Shown here piece after piece: positions 1,003-62,183 of a DNA stretch of 64,000 bases. Source of the stretch: Eledone cirrhosa. Its lineage: Eukaryota. Location of the stretch: positions 19,220,001 through 19,284,000 of the forward strand of contig OZ024758.1 of the NCBI GenBank assembly GCA_964016885.1. Reading direction: 5' to 3'. Position numbers and translations under genes: made by a program. The stretch's first letter is position 1. Every line of letters starts with the position of its first letter. Below the pieces are notes generated by a model. The model searched no databases. It was given only the letters and a program-made list of their open reading frames with translations, and was not told where the DNA came from.

Positions 1003-1359
1003 TTATACTTCTCTTAGGTCAGTGTTGTTTGTTTGGGTGTTGTTTTTGTTCCACTCATTCTTTCTGTTTAGCTTTGGTCTTCTAATTTCTATTTCACTGG
1101 CCTCTCTGATTTGCCTATCTGCTGGGTCATTCCTATGTTTAGATATTATTCTAATTTCTATGTTGTCTATGTTACCGTCATGTTGTTGTCTAGCATGTTC
1201 GTATAGTACTGACCCGTTTTTTCGTCCTTTTAGTTCCCCCCAGTGTTGGTCTATCCTTTCACCTATGCTACGAGCTGTCTCACCTATGTATGTTGTTGTC
1301 AGGTTTCTGCAAGTACCCTCTGTACATCTTATGCTATAGACTACGTTTCTAGTTTTACA

Positions 1360-1360
<1 letters not shown>
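1003..1360 (-). pseudogene. Penelope-type GIY-YIG endonuclease fragment
   Basis: CKTRNVVYSIRC...YIGETARSIGERIDQH...LYEHA...IREASEI...PKLNRK; VVY/YIG, catalytic R, H, E and LN motifs; the start is lost in (TA)n. Confidence 0.9.
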
Positions 1361-1399
<39 letters not shown>

Positions 1400-1546
1400 C
1401 CACACACAGAAAAATATATATAACACTATTATAGAAATGTAATTCTGGTTATGAATGCTAGATTCAAAACGATCTATATTTAAACAAAGTTAGAATTTGA
1501 TTTTTTGCATTTACATATCGGATTACATAAAGGTATTTATGAGTTT

Positions 1547-6772: not shown

Positions 6773-6826
<54 letters not shown>

Positions 6827-7042
6827 GTTAAAGATGTACATCCATATATGTATACTGAAATACTAGTATGTATATGAATACACACACGTATACATATGTA
6901 GATGTACCAAGTTTTTTCACTGGTCACTTTACTGTGAGTGGCCAGCTATTCTGTATGTAAACACACAGACAATCCGGTTTTTAGAGTCATACTGGTTTTT
7001 GAGGAAACACCTTTCCTCTATTCTCCAGAAAGCCAGACAAGG

Positions 7043-7087
7043 AATATTGAACTAGTTTCGTTGTTGTTACAACTCATCAGCAATATT
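7043..7087 (-). ncRNA. Minimal type I hammerhead ribozyme
   Basis: Exact reverse complement of 7514-7558. Confidence 0.88.
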
Positions 7088-7513
7088 TACCTATCTTCCG
7101 GCCTCTCTAGAGAATCGTAAAAGCACATATCGTTATATGCTTTTTCTATGAAAATTAGTAGTGGGCATACTAATTTGCATAGAGTGTGATTAAGTACCGG
7201 TTCAACGGAGACGATAAAAACAAATAACGAAACGAAATTAAATTTTGTTTCATTTGTAACTCACTTTTGTATGACTGACGCTTAAACAATTAAGTTAAAG
7301 ATGTACATCCATAATTAAATTGTACATCCATAATTTGTACATCCATGTACATCCATAATTTAATTTCGTTTCGTTATTTGTTTTTATCGTCTCCGTTGAA
7401 CCGGTACTTACTCACACTCTATGCAAATTATAATGCCCACTACTAATTTTCATAGAAAAAGCATATAACGATATGTGCTTTTACGATTCTCTAGAGAGGC
7501 CGGAAGATAGGTA

Positions 7514-7558
7514 AATATTGCTGATGAGTTGTAACAACAACGAAACTAGTTCAATATT
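7514..7558 (+). ncRNA. Minimal type I hammerhead ribozyme
   Basis: AAUAUUG-CUGAUGA-GUUGU(AACA)ACAAC-GAAA-CUAG-UU-CAAUAUU: 7-bp stem I, 5-bp stem II, palindromic stem III ACUAGU, predicted cleavage after 7551. Confidence 0.9.
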
Positions 7559-7847
7559 CCTTGTCTGGCTTTCTGGAGAATAGAGGAAAGGTGTTTCCTC
7601 AAAAACCAGTATGACTCTAAAAACCGGTTTGTCTGTGTGTTTACATACAGAATAGCTGGCCACTCACAGTAAAGTGACCAGTGAAAAAACTTGGTACATC
7701 TACATATGTATACGTGTGTGTATTCATATACATACTAGTATTTCAGTATACATATATGGATGTACATCTTTAACTTAATTGTTTAAGCGTCAGTCATACA
7801 AAAGTGAGTTACAAATGAAACAAAATTTAATTTCGTTTCGTTATTTG

Positions 7848-12281: not shown

Positions 12282-12880
<599 letters not shown>

Positions 12881-19199: not shown

Positions 19200-19497
19200 A
19201 TGGTGGCTGCCAACTCGTTTTCGAGTACGGCCACTACTTTATATCCATGTAGGAGAACCCCTACCGATGCGCTGAACGAGTGTGACTTTTTAGTCCAGCC
19301 AGCAACTTGGTACAAACACTACACCTGTGACAATTATTGACACATAGTGCTGGGCCCATGATACCATGTGACAACAAGTGCAGAGAGATCTCCAGATATA
19401 AAGCAATGCCTGTGCCGTGAAGCTTTTATAGTGAGCAAAGGCACTGCACAAAGCCAGTCCCACTCTCTTAACCAAGATGATATTTACCAAAAAGAAT
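19200..19497 (-). mobile_element. Family C element, 3' half
   Basis: Collinear with 41673-41975; bounded by (TA)n. Confidence 0.85.
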
Positions 19498-20325: not shown

Positions 20326-20327
<2 letters not shown>

Positions 20328-20893
20328 CAACCTGTGCCATAGTCGGGTCGTTGGCGACTAAACTGGCAACCCCACCAAAGTTTCTTGGTGAGGATCGTGA
20401 CTTTGGACATCCTGCAGGACTAAAAACAAAATCTGTCAAATGGCAAAGGAGCTCTTAAGAGTCAATGGCCATCCAAAATCACTGGGAGAGATGACCCCTT
20501 AGCCTTTGTCAAGGCAGAATTCTAGGAGAAGGAAAACTCTTATATAACACCCTGCAACCCTGATGGTATCCAATGATGTTCACTTGTTCTTCTCTTTGGT
20601 AAATATCATCTTGGGTAAGAGCGTGGGACTGGCTTTGTGCAGTGCCTTTGCTCACTATAAAAGCTTCACGGCACAGGCCTTGCTTTATATCTGGAGATCT
20701 CTCTGCACTTGTCGTTACATGGTACCATGGTCCCAGCACTATGTGTCAATAAATGTCACAGGTATAGTGTTTGTACCAGAGTTTTCAAGTCGCTGGCTGG
20801 ACTAAAAATTCACACTCGTTCAGCGCATCGTTAGAGGTTCTCCTACATGGATATAAAGTCGTGGCCGTACTCGAAAACGAGTTGGCAGCCACC
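20326..20893 (+). mobile_element. Family C element, nearly full length (HDV-like head truncated)
   Basis: Reverse complement of 41673-42236; ends GAGTTGGCAGCCACCA into (TA)n. Confidence 0.85.
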
Positions 20894-20898
20894 ATATT

Positions 20899-30931: not shown

Positions 30932-31503
30932 TAATAATTGTTTCTACATGAGGCACAATGCCAGCAAATAACCAGTACATTACTGGTATGCATTTTATCG
31001 ACCCAGTGAGGATGAAAGGCAGAGTTAACCTCGGCGGGATTTGAACTCAGACTGTAAAGGGACGTAACTATGCTACAAAGCATTGCGTCCGACTCTCTAC
31101 CGATACTGCCAATTCACCTGAAATAATTATGGACATTATTTAGCCAGTATCGATAGAAGGTCTGACGCCATGCTTTGTAGCAATAAATTACGGCTCTTTA
31201 TGGTTTGATTTCAAGTCCCACCGAGGTTAAGATTGTCTTTCATCCTTGCGGAGTCGATAAAATAAAGTACCAGTAATACACTGTGGTGATTGCTGGTCTT
31301 GTGTGTCAAAAGTAGAAACAATTATATAGCATCGGTAGAGGGTCGGACGACATGCTTTGCAGAAAAGAGTTACATCCCTTTATGGTGTGAGTTCAAATCC
31401 CGCCGAGGTTAACTTTGCCTTGCACCGTTACGGGGGTCGATAAAATAAAGTACCAGTAATGCACTGGCATAATTGCTGGCCTGATGCCAAATGTAGAAAC
31501 AAA
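30932..31503. mobile_element. Three MetaSINE/MESC-type SINEs (30932-31118 -, 31138-31324 +, 31328-31503 +)
   Basis: Consensus matches; the first two are head-to-head. Confidence 0.85.
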
Positions 31504-39125: not shown

Positions 39126-39505
39126 GGGCGGTGGATTGGCAGTATCGGTAGAGGGTCGGACGCCATGCTTTACACCCACCAAAAGAGTTACGGCCTTTTA
39201 TGATCTGATTTCAAATCCCGCCGAGGTAAACTTTGCCTTTCATCCTTACGGGGTCGATAACATAGAGTATCAGTTATGCACTGGGATAACTGCTGGCCTT
39301 GTGCCAAAAGTAGAAACAATTATTTAGACAGAATAGGTAGAGGGTCTGACGCCATGCTTTGCAGCAACGAGTTACGGCCCTTTATGGTTTGAGTTCAAAA
39401 CCCGCCGTGCTTAACTTTGCCTTTCATCCTTAGGGGTAGATAAAATATAGTACTAGTAATACACTGGGATAATTGTTGGCATTGTGCCAAAAGTTGAAAT
39501 AATTA
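39126..39505 (+). mobile_element. MetaSINE/MESC-type SINE head-to-tail dimer
   Basis: Two consensus matches. Confidence 0.85.
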
Positions 39506-40029
39506 TCGTGATATTAAATAAATGAAAGAAATATATAATTATATACTCATAACAAATGCATAATATCTATTTAATTGAATTGAACTTGTAATAAATAAAG
39601 TAACGAATGAAGACCTACATGATCATTCAATGTGCTAGAAGAGGCTATGAAATATTCCTAAAATACGGTGCATTTAAAAGAAAGACACACTGACTAAACT
39701 TTGCCTAGATATACAGTAACCCTGGGGACATATACATCATTATAATCATGCTGAGCCTGTGATTAAACGTCGGCAAGTACAACAGCAACAGTAACAACAA
39801 CAACAACGACAACACATAAAACAGGAATACTCAGTTTAAACACTGTTTCTAGAGCAATACAGTGACATATATAATAAAGTCAAGTCTACATGCTTTGCAG
39901 CATTTCGTGACTTCCCGTTACACCTTGAGAAGTTCAAATGCGTTCATGAATCTCCAACTTAATCAATAAAATTACTATAAGTAATGTACAAGTCTTGAGC
40001 AAATCGATTTATTTATTTCATCAAAACTC

Positions 40030-41438
40030 TACACAACTTTCCAAATGTGGAACATCGCACAAACAAAAAACTCAACCCCTATGGAAGAAATAACCTAGAC
40101 ATCAGTAGAGCGCCGACCAGGAGGTGTAACTGCCCTGATAGATCTACGTGCCCCCTCAACAACAAATGCCGAGAACGTAACGTGATCTACCAGTGCAACG
40201 TGAGAACGGACACCTCCAACAAAGCCTATATAGGATTAACCTCGAGTGACTTCAAGACCCGGCTCTACCAACACCGAGATACTTTCCGAAACCAGATCCG
40301 GCGACATGCCACTACACTTTTGGGCCACATCTGGGACCTCCAAGTAATAATATAACCTACAATCTCACTTGGAGCTTACTGTCCACAGCTAACTCTTACA
40401 CGGGAGGACACCGTCCGTGTAACTTATGCTCGGAGGAAACATTACAAATGCTGTTCTTGAAAGACCACCTCCTAAACAAGAAAGACGAACTGGTAACCGC
40501 ATGCAAACACAGATTTCGTAGGACTTACCTCACCCTCAAACCCCATAACAACCCGGGTGGGCAGACGAGGGCTGATACACCCCCTCCCCCCACTTGCCGA
40601 ATAAGTTAGGGGAAACACCAGTTTATCTCTTTTCTTTTCTTTTCCTCTTTGTCTTCTTCTTCCCCCTGTCTCATCCTATCACTTCCTTCTACCCCCTATT
40701 TTCTACCTCGTCTGCTCTTCCTCTTTCACCTACCCCTATGCAGCTCATCGGGCCTCTGTAGCATCAGTTCCCCCACCCCTGTACGTTTAAAATAGAATTG
40801 GCTGAATACGTTTTACTAACTACTTATAACAGACGTGTTAAACCCCTTTAATGTTGTATCAGTTCTGGTACTACTCAATTTCTACAAGTTTTTTTCTATT
40901 CTCAACTTATTAACCTGTAATTGTAGGATAGCATTGTGTTTTTATTTACTCATTTCTCACTATTTAATTTTATATATTTTTTTATTTATTTCTATTATCT
41001 TTTATTGTCTCCTACTCTCATTCGATTTACCTATTGTATAACCTCCCTCCTCCACTTCATACACTATCCTTAGAATCTGCTGTATACATATCACTTTCAA
41101 CGCTTGACCTCTCCACTCACACCCCAATTGTTCTACAGGCAAGTTCAGCCACACCTACCTCCCACCAAATGCCATGATAGACATATCTGTGTTTACAACA
41201 AATGTTAACCAATCCTCTTGACAACTACAATCGTCCCATATAAGGAAGTAGCCCCTTGACAAGTTCGGCTATTTATTCACCAGGCTAAAAATTCTAATGT
41301 AGTCCAGAAATAGCCGTCGAAACGGCTTGAGCTCTGCCGTCAGGGTCATACTTTTTCCTATTAACCACTCTACTACCCAAAGTATTGAGTACTCTGTTGT
41401 GTTATGGTCCATCTGGTTCATTACCACAATTCCTTTCT
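40030..41438 (+). mobile_element. 5'-truncated Penelope-like element whose 3' terminus defines family A
   Basis: GIY-YIG, then pyrimidine-rich UTR, then family A terminus, then (TA)n. Confidence 0.75.
40047..40609 (+). pseudogene. Penelope-type GIY-YIG endonuclease remnant with one frameshift (~40345)
   Basis: CNCPDRSTCPLNNKC...VIY...YIGLTSSDFKTRLYQH...HIWDL, then in another frame YNLTWSLL...CNLCSEE...LLNKKDELVTACKH; stop at 40607-40609. Confidence 0.88.
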
Positions 41439-41636: not shown

Positions 41637-41672
<36 letters not shown>

Positions 41673-41676
<4 letters not shown>

Positions 41677-42280
41677 TGGCTGCCAACTCGTTTTCTAGTA
41701 CGGCCACTACTGTATATCCATGTAGGAGAACCCCTACCGATACTCTGAACGAGTGTGACTTTTTAGTCCAGCCAGCGACTTGAAAACTCTGGTACAAACA
41801 CTACACTTGTGACAATTATTGACACATAGTGCTGGGCCCATGGTACCATGTGACGACAAGTCCAGAGAGATCTCCAGATATAAAGCAATGCCTGTGTCGT
41901 GAAGCTTTTATAGTGAGCAATGGCACTGCACAAAGCCAGTCCCATTCTCTTAACCAAGATGATATTTACCAAAAAGAACAAGTCAACATCATTGGATACC
42001 ATCAGGGTTGCAGGAGTTATATCAGAGTTTTCCTTCTCCTATATTTATGCCTTGACAAAGGCTAAGGGGGTCATCTCTCCCGGTGATTTTGGATGGCCAT
42101 TGACTCTTAAGAGCTCCTTTACCCTTTGACAGATTTTGTTTTTACTCCTGCAGGATGTCCAGTCACCCTCCTCACCAAAACACCTTCGTGGGGTTGCCAG
42201 TTTAGTCGCCAACGACCCGACCATGAGACATGTTGTACTGGGATACATGTCACCAGTAGCACTAACTGATGACCTGACAT
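41673..42280 (-). mobile_element. Family C element, longest copy (~600 bp, non-coding)
   Basis: Three copies in the window share the same terminus ...GAGTTGGCAGCCACCA-(TA)n. Confidence 0.85.
42197..42274 (-). ncRNA. Putative HDV-like ribozyme at the 5' end of family C
   Basis: P1 GGUCAU/AUGGUC, P2 CCAGU/ACUGG, P3 ACA/UG(U) around ACCUG (two-copy consensus), GGG, P4 UCG(UUGG)CGA, J4/2 CUAA. Confidence 0.55.
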
Positions 42281-42303
42281 AATTTATATATATATATACA
42301 TAC

Positions 42304-42428
<125 letters not shown>

Positions 42429-42473
42429 TGTATTTATATATAGAGATAGATAGATATACATATATATATATAC

Positions 42474-42586
<113 letters not shown>

Positions 42587-42726
42587 TACAAAAAATATAT
42601 ATATATACACATATATATAAATATATATATATTTATAAACATATATTTATTTTTTATATATATATATATATTTGCTTGTGTGTTTATATATTAATATCAT
42701 ATATATATACATATATATATACATAT

Positions 42727-42757
<31 letters not shown>

Positions 42758-43671
42758 TTTATTTATATATATATATATTTGTGTGTGTGTTTATATATTA
42801 ATATGTGTATATAAGCGTGAGCGCGTTTATTTATATCAAAGGGAGACATGCTTCAGCAACATTTATATTAACAAATTACACCTGTTTAATTCTCAGGTAT
42901 TAAAACGTATCGTTTGTTATGTTCAACAGTTTTCTTTTGTTTCAGTTACCTGAGTAATAAATCTTTAGGATATGAACAACGCACACAAACACCCATTATG
43001 TAAGCATGCACATCCATACATATAGACTTATACACGAATGCATATGGTCTCAGAATCTTAAATGCATACACACACACATATATGGACACATGTAATATAA
43101 AGTTTATGGTGAAATATACGATACGCAAATCAGGCTAGATATATTTATTTAATTACGTACGTTCTATTATATACATGTATAGGTGTATGTAGGTATTCAT
43201 GTATGCTTGTCTAATGTTTAGAGGTAGTCTTTGCTACATCACATGTTATTTATATGGAAATATATTTATATATCCAGATCTATATACACAGGAGCTTGTG
43301 ATTTTGCATGTGTGTAAATAAGGAACACATTTTCCATCCAACATGATATATTAAAATAAAATTGTGTTCAAATTTGATCCCCTTTTATCAAGTATATTGA
43401 AACTCACTTAATAATATTTCAAGCGAAACAACGGCATTCATAAATATATAAATCTATTGTTTGGAGGTCTTCGCAAGGAGAAATCCGTCGTGTGGACTAT
43501 GTATTGATGAACGAATAAATATTCTAAAGAGATTATGCAATAGTGATTGCCTAAAAACGAGAAATGAATTATTCACACGTTGTCCACACGTCTCGAAACA
43601 CCTCTTGAATAATTACAAAGCTCTGGATTGAATTACAACATCATAATTTTCTTATCAACTAGAAACTTTTC

Positions 43672-51998: not shown

Positions 51999-52899
51999 TT
52001 ATACCCCTTTGTTTCTCGTGCGTGAACATCGACCGTTTCGTAGGTGTACGTTTGTGTTTATATTTTTATAACTATATTTGTTTGTATGAAAATTCTAAGT
52101 CTAGGAATGAGTATAGCCTTACGTATTTTACTATTTCTTCATCTTATCTTACTTTCCTTTTTGTCATCAACATCATCATTAACGTCATCATCAGTATCGC
52201 ATTCATCTTCATCATCTTCTTTCTGCTCTCTTCTTTCTTGATCCTCTTTTTCTGCTTTATCTTCTTGTATTTCTTCTCCCTCTTCTTCTTATTTGTCTTT
52301 TGTTTCTACCTTTATTTCTTTATTTCTTCTCCCCAAAGTACTTTTCCCCCACCACAGTATTGTTTGTACAGTTTTATTACAGCTACAGTAGATTTACGAC
52401 TGTCTTCTTTTATTACATTTACAATTTATTTTCCATATAACGTATATATTCAGATGATTTTATTTATTAATAATTTCTTTTCTTTATCCTTCTCTCTTTT
52501 TTTCTGTCTATATGGTTGTCCTCCTTCGAATAATATCGGGGTGAAATCATGGAACTACTGGCGTACATCTTTACCATAAAATGAAATGAAAAACGTAACG
52601 TATTGAAAATGTTTGTTTTAATATATTACATTTAATACACTTATAATAAACATCATTTAAATGAACTAAAATATCATAGATATTAAGATCATCCATTGTG
52701 CAACCTAATCCATTTATATAATATATTCCGGTGTCCTGAAGAAGAGAGGAGTAACAGATCTTATGAAAGCTACGTTGATATCCCAATGGCCATCAAAAAC
52801 TAACTTTTCTGTGCTATTAATAACAAGAATACAGAAATAACGACATTTAAGATATATATAATAACAAAGCCAAGAGTCTTAATTCATCAAACATCAACA

Positions 52900-53193
52900 A
52901 TGAAACACAGAACAATTGTAATTTGCCAACGGCGATGGATACTCCTCTGTACTTTTTTCATATTATGTAACATAGCCTTAAATGGGAAAACAGAGGCTTA
53001 CACAAAATACCATTGCCATTTTCCCAAATTTCTTGAGGTTCCTGAAGGATGGTCAGTCCAATATACCAATGGAAATCACAAAGCAATATTTAAAAAAGGA
53101 AAGGTTGATGCAAAAACTTGTGTTACTCAGTGCCAGGAGTTCGTTAGATATTGCCAAGAAGAAAAAGAAAGCGGAAAATATGTCGTCTCACAG
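52900..53193 (+). CDS. Coding exon 1 of a secreted/GPI-type cysteine-rich protein (98 codons, signal peptide)
   Basis: ATG, basic n-region, hydrophobic WILLCTFFILCNIAL, then CHFPKFL..W; donor CAG|GTAAGA in phase 0. Confidence 0.85.
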
Positions 53194-53706
53194 GTAAGAT
53201 TACTGAATTTGTTATACATTTAGATTTCTTTATATATAGGGTGTTCCCCAAAAATGTATAAATACTATTGCCTGTACATGTAATCAAAGTGTGTATACAT
53301 GTCGAGGACACACACTGTATTTTGTATGTTTGGCGCTCCATACTCGCCTATTCGCAGTGTCTTTAGCGCATCCGTATTTGTACCTGGGTTTGATGGTCTA
53401 ACTTCAAATACCATCCAATTTAACTTATCCCTTCATTCTTCCAAGAAGAGTAGAAACAGTACTATTATATAGACCGTGGAATGGCACCATTTGTAAACAG
53501 TCGGATCATAATTTTTCATATCTGTTCCGAATCTCATAGTTTGAGCTCAAATCTGCCTCCTACTGCTATTGGTCGCTCGGTCTGACGATCGGACATTTTT
53601 CTTTCGAATATTTTGAATTTTACAAATTATTTCTTTTCTTTCTTCGTATAAGTTTACATGCTATTCGGAAAATATACTAACCTATACACGGGAAGAATAA
53701 GACACA

Positions 53707-54232
<526 letters not shown>

Positions 54233-54712
54233 TATATATTTAAAAAATCATAATCGTCACTATTCGTTCAGCTGGCACTTAGCTTGGCATCACTTTTCCA
54301 TTTAATGTTGCGTCATCTAAAATCACTCATTATTATCTTTATAAAACTGATTTCATTCTTCCCGTTGGTATCCTGCCCGTGTGTGAATTGTGCATGCACG
54401 TTTGCTTATGTGTATGTGTCCGTATGTGAATAACTGTGTTTATCATAGACACTCAATCTGTTCTAACGACGAATTTGGGAACTGGTTGTTTGTCAGAAGA
54501 GCTAGTTTGAGCAATTAACGTAAACATTGCAGACGCATTCACATTAAACATTCAGTGTGTTACGGGTGGCTCTGTTTGATATAGTTAAAATGTATTTTTT
54601 CCCTTCTAGAACAATGAGAAATGAAGTATATTTCTGTAAGTTCCTTTGTGCCACGATGAATGGAACTTCCACATAACTCTTTCATCACCATAGTCATATA
54701 CACTGATCCTTA

Positions 54713-55085
54713 TGTGGATTGGCAGTATCGCTAGAGGGTCGGACGCCACGCTTTCCAGCATAGTTACGTCCCTTTACGCTCTGAGTTCAAATCCCGCCGA
54801 GGTTAACTTTGCCTTTCATCCTCACGGGGTCGATAAAGTAAAGTACCAGTAATGCACTGGGTAATTGCTGGCCTTGTGCCTAAAGTAGAAATAATTATGT
54901 GGATTGGCAGTATCGGTAGAGTGTCTGACGTCATCCTTTGCAGTAGAGAGTTACGTCTCTTTATGATCTGATTTCAAATCCCACCGAAGTTAACTTTGCC
55001 TTTCATCCTCATGGTCTCGATAAAATAAAGTACCAGTAATGCACTGGGGAATTTGCTGACCTTGTGCCAAAAGTAGAAACAACTA
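54713..55085 (+). mobile_element. MetaSINE/MESC-type SINE head-to-tail dimer (intronic)
   Basis: Two abutting copies. Confidence 0.88.
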
Positions 55086-55239
55086 TATTAATGGAAGAAA
55101 AAAATTCGCGTCTTATAACTTAAGAAAACACCAACAGATTTATTGGTATCACGCTCTGAATTTTGTCATCCAGCGCAAGTTGATGAAATGTCAGTGGCGG
55201 TTTCAAGTAATATACGTGATTTACTTGTTTCTAATGCAC

Positions 55240-60539: not shown

Positions 60540-62183
60540 GAGGAAAAAGATGATCCACAAACTAAATACCTTTGCATGCAGTTTATTAAAAGAAGTGATG
60601 CCGTAATGCAGATACGAATGTCACCATTGAGTTCTTCCGACGTTGGTGTCTGCAATGATACTCGTTTGATGATGGATGACTGGCCTCTCTTATCAGTCCA
60701 TTTGTTTCACGAAACAGAAGTTAAATGCCCCTTTGAAGGAGGCTATGATTTTGATGTAAAATTACCTTCTGGCGATAAGGTATGTTCAAGTAAAATATTA
60801 CCATTGCGGTTTGAAAGTTACTGTGTTGAAGAAGAAGGAATATTGCTTAGACTTCGTGAGGAAACATGTAGACAACACTTTGAAAATTTAAATATTGAGA
60901 ACAGGCTCCGCTGTATGGCAAAATGGCAACATGGTAAAGACACATATGTGGTTGTGCGAGACGCTGATGCTGTGCGTTATTGGTGCATGCGCATAATATA
61001 TGAAGAAAATGGCATGATTAAAAAAATTTACTTCTTCTTAGATATGATATGTGATACGAAAACAATATTCCCTCCAGATCGAAAATACCTTGTTTTCGAG
61101 ATGTTTCACCGTGTGATCCGTAGCATTTGCAGTGATGAATTTGAAAAATGCAGTCGTCAGGATATGTGCAATACAGAATACAGGTCCCACTGCCTGCAGT
61201 CTTGTGGTGACTGCAAGATTAAAGCCTTTAGTAAATTCCGAGGTCTTCAAGCCTGTAGCTTCCCAAAGATAATGCATGGTACGTGGTTGCGGCATGTACG
61301 CCAAGGAACGAGTAAAATAACCATTAGTAATAATACAGTTAACATTAATAGTGAAACAAACTGGCATTGTATCGATGCAGGAGAAGGAAATTTTTCTCGA
61401 AGACGGGTTCTAATGAAAACATTTGATAATGGTTGCTATCCACGATTTATGTGTATCGAGCTTCACGAAGCAGCTCCTTCAGTTATGCGATATCGAGTAG
61501 GAAAAATTGTTCTTTGGCCACTCAACATTAGTCATTTCCTGCAAGAACATGTCTGTAATAATGATTTGTTTGCACACAATAATATTCGACACAAATTACC
61601 TTCTCAAAGTATTACTCCTTTGCAGAATTTAGTCCGCGAGTATGAAAAAAGTACCGTTTCATGCAATCTACCACCTGGGCTAGGTAAATCGATGGCCTTC
61701 CGTGACGAGAAAGCACGACGCGGTTGCCTTATAAATAATATTCATTTGGTACCTCACCGAATGGTTTTGATGTTGGAGGATGAAGAGGGTGAGCATAAAA
61801 TTCATGCTGAGTATTTCTGCCTCGCTTCGTTGAAATTTATAAATGAATATGACACAATAATTACCCAAACAAAAGAGAATATGGATGAATATTTATGTTG
61901 GATGATCATTGATAACAAAGAATTCATTATGCTTCCTGCATCTGTGTGTAACAGGGTTCACGCTGAGGCAGTCTTGAAAAGAGTTGAGAAGCCCTTAGCA
62001 AGACTAAGCCTCATATCTAACAGTGAATGCAAACGGGCAGAAGAGAAATGGCGCAAAATAGTTTTAAAAAAAAGAAACACTGGGCCTCCCTTAGTAAACC
62101 AAATGTCGCGAGCCACTGCTTCGAATGCCAGTAGTTGCCTAACGTTAATTCTATTTTTTATGACTACTTTGACGTTACACTGA
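60540..62183 (+). CDS. Coding exon 2 of the cysteine-rich surface protein (547 codons; ShKT-like module; hydrophobic C-terminal tail)
   Basis: Polypyrimidine acceptor TTTTTTAG|GAG at 60539/60540, phase 0, in frame with the 535-aa ORF; the join reads KYVVSQ-EEKDDPQTKYLCMQFIKRS; non-repetitive 1.6-kb open frame. Confidence 0.92.
   Translation, partial: EEKDDPQTKYLCMQFIKRSDAVMQIRMSPLSSSDVGVCNDTRLMMDDWPLLSVHLFHETEVKCPFEGGYDFDVKLPSGDKVCSSKILPLRFESYCVEEEGILLRLREETCRQHFENLNIENRLRCMAKWQHGKDTYVVVRDADAVRYWCMRIIYEENGMIKKIYFFLDMICDTKTIFPPDRKYLVFEMFHRVIRSICSDEFEKCSRQDMCNTEYRSHCLQSCGDCKIKAFSKFRGLQACSFPKIMHGTWLRHVRQGTSKITISNNTVNINSETNWHCIDAGEGNFSRRRVLMKTFDNGCYPRFMCIELHEAAPSVMRYRVGKIVLWPLNISHFLQEHVCNNDLFAHNNIRHKLPSQSITPLQNLVREYEKSTVSCNLPPGLGKSMAFRDEKARRGCLINNIHLVPHRMVLMLEDEEGEHKIHAEYFCLASLKFINEYDTIITQTKENMDEYLCWMIIDNKEFIMLPASVCNRVHAEAVLKRVEKPLARLSLISNSECKRAEEKWRKIVLKKRNTGPPLVNQMSRATASNASSCLTLILFFMTTLTLH

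Follow-up and report, generated by a model that had tools for sequence, protein, structure and literature searches.

The window, a 64,000-nucleotide stretch of the Eledone cirrhosa genome, contains at positions 41673–42280 of the reverse strand a decayed copy of a short RTE-type retroelement, non-autonomous and ~610 nt long, whose family is here named family A. The copy is ~608 nt long and sits between TA tracts, a (TA)n tract at its 3' end (41639–41674, tail and target) and a (TA)n-rich tract at its 5' end (42285–42778, target). A second copy on the forward strand (20326–20895) is 5'-truncated and starts with element base 44, and a third on the reverse strand (19200–19496) comprises only the 3' half; both partial copies show 92–93% identity with the 41673–42280 element. 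A DNA search of the 3.0-Gb genome with the element gave 6,241 first-look candidates, and the 40 of these that were scored are 94–96% identical and nearly all full length. A 22-nt motif from the head of the element has 10,311 exact matches in the genome, against none for the reversed control. The ~600-nt element ending in (TA)n, as described in the original prediction made from the window alone, is confirmed with a copy number far beyond chance, and its description as a short non-autonomous non-LTR retroelement of a TA-rich niche is borne out by its RTE-derived parts and its TA/TATG flanks.

Family A copies lie mostly inside TA/TATG tracts, and the upstream flank is microsatellite-like in 25 of the first 30 of the 10,311 head-motif matches. 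The head of the window copy deviates from 29–30 of the 30 sampled copies at positions 42269, 42263, 42251 and 42231, the last of these changes disrupting one pair of the stem P1 described below. The window copy, with these four changes, is likely to be inactive.

Two matches to the hammerhead family HH9, 7027–7098 on the reverse strand and 7503–7574 on the forward strand (37.7 bits, E=6e-6, under the 52-bit cut-off), lie within a 960-nt inverted repeat (6821–7780). An abundant tRNA-like SINE of ~185 nt, often a dimer, occupies 12292–12642, 31149–31502, 39131–39506 and 54710–55086 and is also present as many single units. The 547-aa open frame at 60540–62183 (forward strand), which contains DUF7042 and DUF7043 above cut-off together with DUF7044, is probably a large host exon, and a signal-peptide-like frame at 52804–53223 (forward strand) may belong to the same gene. 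The frames at 1003–1425 (reverse strand) and 39999–40609 (forward strand) resemble, by eye, what we take to be GIY-YIG endonuclease remnants of Penelope-like elements.

Origin of the element and related families

The head segment (42088–42280, reverse strand) is homologous to the 5' end of L111, an old, broken, 4-kb RTE-type element with 63 candidates in the genome (family E); the identity, measured with copy L002 of the short element, is 84.5% over 194 nt. The middle segment (41885–42089, reverse strand) has its homologue at the end of the 5'UTR in L117, a younger RTE-type family, with 68% identity over 229 columns (copy L002). The RTE-type 3' end (41673–41702, reverse strand) consists of a short hairpin and a terminal motif, after which comes the microsatellite, and 29 of its 34 nt (85%, copy L002) are identical to the 3' end of the L117 family.

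At 41734–41904 (reverse strand) lies a remnant of the C-terminus of an RTE open reading frame, with a C2H2 zinc finger and a stop codon. The zinc finger (41737–41904) matches PF00096 with E=1.8e-4 and 22.2 bits, under the 25.2 cut-off, and this remnant runs counter to the statement that the element has no protein similarity. It shows ~48% protein identity with the C-terminus of the RTE-type frame of L117 in the same genome and, at the nucleotide level, 41 identical positions of 55 (75%). The remnant is present in 27 of 30 family A loci, with the common stop in 26; a protein search with it as the query returned no match.

The L117 family was reached through an RTE motif, which had 24 genomic matches, 20 of them extended. 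It encodes an 878-aa frame with endonuclease and reverse transcriptase domains (APE-type endonuclease below cut-off, reverse transcriptase 106.7 bits) and a downstream frame with C2H2 zinc fingers, has ~4,000 candidates at 91–94% identity, and possesses a long 5'UTR with a sharp start and without the family A head. L117 also matches family B, a short sister family of A, at 86% and 97%. A search for the partner with RVT_1 led to 30 loci of another LINE type, which show no match to the element. The genome also contains a very young LINE family, unrelated to the element, many copies of which have an open frame of 945 aa (L053, L056, L059).

Because the head matches L111 while the middle, the zinc finger and the 3' end match L117, the element is, as judged from its sequence, a bipartite non-autonomous RTE derivative, a kind of element already known. 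LINEs sharing the ends of the element, which the original prediction proposed to look for, do exist (L111 for the head and L117 for the 3' end), but the two ends match two RTE families and no single parent with both was found. The tentative assignment to the RTE clade is based on the RTE motif, on the domain order and on a 5'UTR motif shared with PMC5786205.

Copies of the element show target-site duplications, the microsatellite tail, 5' truncations and inversions. Inversions at the 5' end are frequent in short and long RTE copies alike (L031, L032, L037–L040, L117, L163 and L189), as expected from twin priming.

The same head is carried by the short families B, C, D and F. Family F continues after the head with the RTE 5'UTR motif printed in PMC5786205, at most two mismatches to it being present in 21 of 30 loci; the printed motif was found in none of 30 family A loci. 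Among 15 metagenome matches to the head, 11 were unrelated and were dropped; the remaining four contigs are homologous and represent two distinct heads, ~75% identical to those of A and E. The flanks of these contigs match almost nothing among the loci taken from the Eledone genome. An extra hairpin 3' of the stem P4 (42173–42190, reverse strand) has a variable loop and is conserved in families A, B, D and E. Family F heads also occur in tandem arrays with units of ~102–112 nt (C24:18349000-18350900, C26:7105136-7105891, C24:16753057-16753529 and C17:23973919-23974274), reminiscent of tandem exoribonuclease-resistant RNAs (xrRNAs) or of satellite-like retro-units.

Predicted fold of the head

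The first ~75 nt of the element (42205–42279, reverse strand) are predicted to form a head resembling the subclass 1a xrRNAs of flaviviruses, so that the expectation of a pseudoknot-type structured RNA at this place is retained with a different fold. The comparison was made with the Rfam family RF01415 and with the structures of Zika xrRNA1 and MVE xrRNA2, to the extent of their description in PMC7527734, PMC8571300 and PMC8374639. According to these accounts, subclass 1a is built around a three-way junction with a P1 of 5 bp, a P2 of 1–9 bp and a P3 of 4–8 bp, and contains a lone C between P2 and P3, a U/A-U triple, a P4 stem, a PK1 of 1–2 bp with a G-C pair and a PK2 of 2–7 bp.

In the model of the window copy, on the reverse strand throughout, P1 is formed by 42276–42272 with 42233–42229, P2 occupies 42271–42260, the junction C is C42259, P3 is formed by 42258–42253 with 42241–42236, and P4 by 42221–42218 with 42208–42205. 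PK1 joins U42279 and G42278 with 42234 and 42235, PK2 joins 42249–42246 with 42225–42222, and U42277 occupies the base-triple position.

The features of this model, like those of the ribozyme model discussed below, were counted in 135 copies from seven groups (families A–F and the metagenome copies, M), one old copy being excluded. As a measure of pairing potential only, P1 is paired in 137 of 144 cells in family A and 191 of 210 in F, and P3 in 174 of 174 and 229 of 252. P2 varies in sequence and length, yet it has at least 4 bp in 66 of the 74 parsed copies. The junction C is present in 126 of 135 copies (29/29, 30/31, 19/22 and 37/42 in families A, D, E and F), and the G-C pair of PK1 in 117 of 135 (29/29, 29/31, 18/22 and 31/42); the second PK1 pair is U-A in families A–E and G-A in 23 of 42 copies of F. 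The three bases of the triple are found in 127 (U), 133 (A) and 132 (U) of 135 copies, counts that refer to the bases, the triple itself being invisible in sequence; the A in P3 is kept in 29/29, 31/31, 21/22 and 42/42 copies of A, D, E and F. PK2 has 4 bp in A–E and 5 bp in F and is gapped in the metagenome copies, lengths that are frequent by chance: a loop-to-downstream match of at least 4 bp occurs in most of 59 prokaryotic control sequences. P4 is paired in 96.6% of the cells of alignment A2 and shows no double change.

Across families A, B, D, E and F the commonest letter differs in only one of 46 core columns, an A-to-G change that is kept as a G-U pair, and in 32 of 60 columns of the loops, the linker, the interior of P2 and the next 30 columns. 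Pairing holds in 96.4% of the cells of alignment A2, where five pairs are changed on both sides, a number as high being reached in none of 500 shuffles; the changes amount to only six cells, of which four come from the two metagenome copies, one from a copy retrieved with a search pattern that itself required the change and one from a single old copy. Two of the double changes lie in PK2, both in metagenome copies. A shuffle test of this kind can be beaten by related sequences without structure. Minimum-energy folding of the core alone gives the three-way junction for families A, B and D and not for E, F, the metagenome copies or the window copy, and at full head length for A only; RNAalifold on the longer head gives a four-way junction.

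On this model, the head is likely to be a flavivirus-type xrRNA fold rather than an HDV-like ribozyme, and there is good reason to expect that the xrRNA-like fold forms in the head RNA.

Comparison with viral and control sequences

When 421 nt of a family E copy were scanned with 4,227 Rfam families, RF01415 (Flavivirus_SLIV) came out best; it matched over the whole model, on the sense strand and at the first bases of the element, with 22.9 bits and E=0.1. In a scan of 18 heads, RF01415 matched 12 with 19.5–25.7 bits, all under half of its 54.5-bit cut-off, and with E-values of 0.1–5.7, which are not significant alone; it gave no match for the window copy, both metagenome loci and five further heads. 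Where P1 and P3 depart from the Rfam consensus, both partners of the pair are replaced, C-G becoming U-A. The head is outside RF01415 as curated, and the claim made here is that it works like a viral xrRNA, not that it is one.

A model built from 29 retroelement heads only (model R2) was applied to 22 loci from a viral collection; its 28 matches all lie on the plus strand. The loci had been fetched with a flavivirus-type pattern, so that 20 of the matches lie at sites already picked by that pattern, and the E-values of the model are rough; the other eight are GUCAG-start sites that the fetching pattern had missed. All 19 loci containing the end of a GDD-type polymerase frame have matches, the three others none. 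Nine reach at least 20 bits, the best having 27.8 bits. The 19 loci are taken to be flaviviruses from their length, the polymerase end and the motif.

The element-type pattern had no match in viral contigs. In prokaryote genomes it had 59 matches, none of them homologous by nhmmer, and these chance matches were reused as controls: on 58 of them (59 minus one duplicate) model R2 reached at most 17.9 bits, and on 15 loci of other LINE families it had no matches. A descriptor of the 1a features, written after the head was known, found 12 of the 19 flavivirus-like loci and 134 head sites, no non-head site in the genome loci (2.94 Mb in all, with overlaps counted repeatedly), none of 3,000 shuffles and one of the 59 prokaryotic controls. 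The window copy itself fails this descriptor.

Ends of the element and alternative explanations

Among 55 full-length family A copies, 42 have a flanking match of at least 8 nt, which is non-periodic in six. Five of these six are clean target-site duplications (8–23 nt), in which the element ends 0, 1, 2, 3 and 4 nt upstream of the G of the 5' GU, and the sixth is not clean. Inverted 5' ends stop within the same few bases as the start of the element. In families E and F the flanks are mostly non-repeat (17/22 and 40/40), and conservation is lost more than one base upstream of the G, the F counts including tandem units. Class 1 xrRNAs are described as halting Xrn1 four nt upstream of PK1 (PMC12081666). 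The insertion ends agree with such a halt within a few bases and are compatible with a promoter as well; scatter over a few bases would be expected if reverse transcription stops short or if the ends are joined by microhomology.

A promoter is the core of the strongest alternative. On that view the head serves as a pol II promoter inside the element, or as an RNA structure bound by protein, and the start of transcription fixes the 5' end; the likeness of the head to an xrRNA would be chance or, in part, real structure with another use such as stability, translation or RNP assembly. Many LINEs do start at an internal promoter (PMC3774820), and a sharp 5' end needs no such fold, since the L117 family starts sharply without a match to model R2 and without an xrRNA-like fold. 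The strong constancy of the head together with its little covariation would also fit binding sites at the DNA level. Against this, constancy falls on those columns that pair or make tertiary contacts in the xrRNA model, P2 alters its sequence but remains a hairpin, and a model trained on retroelements finds sites in viral 3'UTRs. Furthermore, transcription from a TCAG initiator would drop the upstream GT, which is kept in 30 of 30 copies. The promoter or protein-binding alternative is considered unlikely, though it deserves to be taken seriously.

The 5' end of the L117 family (L193, ~1070–1130, and 11 other loci) begins sharply after TATG and is predicted to fold differently, into a stem around a hairpin, the loop of which could pair with four bases just downstream. 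This is possibly another protective or catalytic structure.

A second alternative takes the head for a degenerate pol III promoter of tRNA origin and the element for an ordinary SINE with an RTE body and tail. The four-way junction given by RNAalifold is cloverleaf-like, and weak B-box-like words can be seen by eye ~60 nt into the head; SINEs combining a tRNA head with RTE sequences are common (PMC5786205). Yet ARAGORN found no tRNA in six loci, internal runs of four or more T, which would stop pol III, are present in 30 of 30 family A copies, and the same head begins the 4-kb coding RTE L111. This origin is very improbable, and the earlier remark that no pol III boxes were noticed agrees with the lack of a convincing pol III design in these loci.

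The original prediction read the head as an HDV-like ribozyme. The motifs on which that reading was built, GG, the GUCG/CGAC hairpin, CUAA and CCAGU/ACUGG, are all present in the sequence, and in family A the 3' half has the order GG, short hairpin, CUAA and a strand complementary to CCAGU. The base proposed as the catalytic C hardly varies, the 5-bp P1 pairs in every family, and RTE elements are known to carry HDV-like ribozymes (PMC5786205, citing Ruminski 2011). The constancy of the candidate C and of the P1 strands is explained by the xrRNA model, since they are also paired there (P4, P1 and PK2).

The double pseudoknot itself does not withstand comparison with the sister families. The proposed P1 ends at 5 bp, two of them wobbles, and its sixth and seventh pairs are formed in 3 of 58 cells in family A and 3 of 62 in D; the proposed L3 has 3 nt, and three surplus bases separate P3' from P1'. 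P2 is intact in family A (145 of 145 cells paired), but at its position 3 the most frequent combination in the metagenome copies and in families B, D, E and F is an A-C mismatch. P3 is broken in family F and the metagenome copies, and P4 and the second G of P1.1 in F, where it is A in 41 of 42 copies. A strict descriptor, built on features of this class including a 3-bp P3, a 7–8-nt L3 with the P1.1 pyrimidines and a P3' abutting P1', matched none of 79 heads, one of 300 shuffles and one canonical site elsewhere in 2.46 Mb; a relaxed descriptor matched 58 of the 79 heads, but 69 of the 300 shuffles too. With E<=10 as the limit, none of the Rfam ribozyme families matched the element.

The site of the proposed cut is also at odds with the ends of the copies. 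Full-length copies were expected to start at G42274, but GTCA upstream of this base is kept in 30 of 30 position-picked copies, and TGTCA in 27 of 30; a cut at G42274 is contradicted by this, since it would strip GTCA from new copies. The copy at 20326–20895 is without the proposed 5' strands of P1 and P2 because it is truncated at element base 44. The 5' strand of P1 was also sought further out, before the start of the element or within the repeat beside it; the pattern matches turned out to be 5' inversions, partial duplications and other contexts, and none of them revealed an element extended at its 5' end. With the strict descriptor silent, P2, P3, P4 and P1.1 broken in sister families, copies reaching upstream of the cut and no Rfam ribozyme match, an HDV-like ribozyme, active or decayed, that excises the element from host RNA near G42274 is hardly tenable.

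The one canonical HDV-like match elsewhere in this genome, a point in favour of the ribozyme reading, belongs to another repeat (L176:4977-5215, plus strand). It has a P1 of 6 bp, a J1/2 of 169 nt, a P3 of 3 bp, an L3 of 8 nt, GG, CGGAA and a P2 of 6 bp; a related stretch lies in the flank of L214, and no Rfam ribozyme match was found for it.

Proposed mechanism

The preferred reading, to which a probability of roughly 60% is assigned, is that of a ~610-nt non-coding RTE derivative whose xrRNA-like head would set the 5' end of its RNA by halting a 5'-to-3' nuclease. An element copy would be transcribed passively inside a host transcript, in an intron, a UTR or by read-through. After debranching, decapping or cleavage, Xrn1 or Xrn2 would chew the upstream RNA and stall a few bases before the ring-threading GU of the head. 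An autonomous RTE protein, its source likely being the L117 family or its sister, would then bind the RTE 3' end of the protected RNA, and target-primed reverse transcription would copy this RNA into a TA/TATG tract, where the few upstream bases left over on the RNA would assist in linking its 5' end with the repeat.

The xrRNA would perform both jobs of an HDV-like ribozyme, marking the 5' end and shielding it, without catalysis. It is regarded as a functional substitute because the HDV-like ribozymes of R2 retroelements process the 5' end and are proposed to shield it (PMC3774820, PMC12222951).

The separate parts of this proposal differ in strength. From the structural model, the head would probably block Xrn1 in vitro. 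The balance tips only slightly toward the xrRNA-like head setting the 5' end of the element in vivo, and about as slightly toward the broader proposition, that an RTE lineage and tens of thousands of its short derivatives carry a working flavivirus-type xrRNA and have their RNA carved by host decay.

Relation to known systems

A 2021 review describes xrRNAs as characterized only in viruses and presents eukaryotic xrRNAs as an open question (PMC8374639). No report of an xrRNA in a retrotransposon was found in the literature searched, which comprised few subscription papers and excluded Repbase and Dfam, nor was there in it a report on an HDV-like ribozyme or RTE element for this animal group. 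Elements of this type have been described before, as have folds of this type in viruses; their combination was not seen in the literature searched.

If the reading is correct, LINEs would have a third, non-catalytic route to their 5' end besides the promoter and the ribozyme, and the head, of which there are over ten thousand copies, would be a non-viral xrRNA of class 1a encoded in a genome. Copies within host RNAs would leave stable decay intermediates. An animal genome rich in repeats would then be scattering nuclease roadblocks through the transcripts it makes. The head would further provide a natural 5' protector for retrotransposon RNA templates and bear on the origin of the flaviviral fold.

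With regard to its body, the element is similar to the bipartite RTE elements Bov-A, RTESINE1/2, WALLSI3 and RTE-N2_Lch, as they are described in PMC5786205: there is no head derived from a small-RNA gene, RTE 5'UTR sequence is joined to an RTE 3' end, and a microsatellite tail, target-site duplications and a high copy number are shared. Unlike these, family A retains ~130 nt similar to the end of the reading frame (the zinc finger), its head and its middle and 3' parts match two RTE families, and it combines strong TA/TATG targeting with an xrRNA-like head. The RTE-derived domain of Ceph-SINE (PMC5786205) has a parallel in family F, which has the printed 5'UTR motif after the head; family A differs from Ceph-SINE in being without this motif and with no tRNA head detected.

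The HDV-like ribozymes of R2, R4/Dong, RTE and L1Tc/ingi elements (PMC3774820, PMC4908430) are placed, like the head, exactly at the 5' end, and their proposed job, the release and shielding of the element RNA from a host co-transcript (PMC12222951), is similar to that proposed here. The head differs in having no canonical P1, P3, L3 or P1.1 and in copies that begin upstream of the proposed cut, and it would act as a nuclease roadblock rather than by self-cleavage.

The differences from the flavivirus 1a xrRNAs, as these are described in the sources cited for the fold, concern first the location, at the 5' end of a DNA-encoded retroelement instead of in a viral 3'UTR. The head has U-A in place of C-G at the fifth pair of P1 and the first pair of P3, although U-A at the fifth P1 pair is also found in two viral sites; it has an L3 of 11 nt and scores under half of the Rfam cut-off. 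The likeness extends to the 5' GU, the 5-bp P1, the variable P2, the single C between P2 and P3, the A-U second pair of P3, the two-base junction between P3 and P1 starting with C, the predicted loop-to-downstream pseudoknot with P4 right after it, and a probable RNA end a few bases upstream. Transfer between flaviviruses and retroelements is conceivable, since marine flaviviruses carry putative and tested xrRNAs (PMC8128465, PMC8632102), and the shared fold may conceivably reflect either an exchange between a marine flavivirus and a retroelement or a fold that evolved twice.
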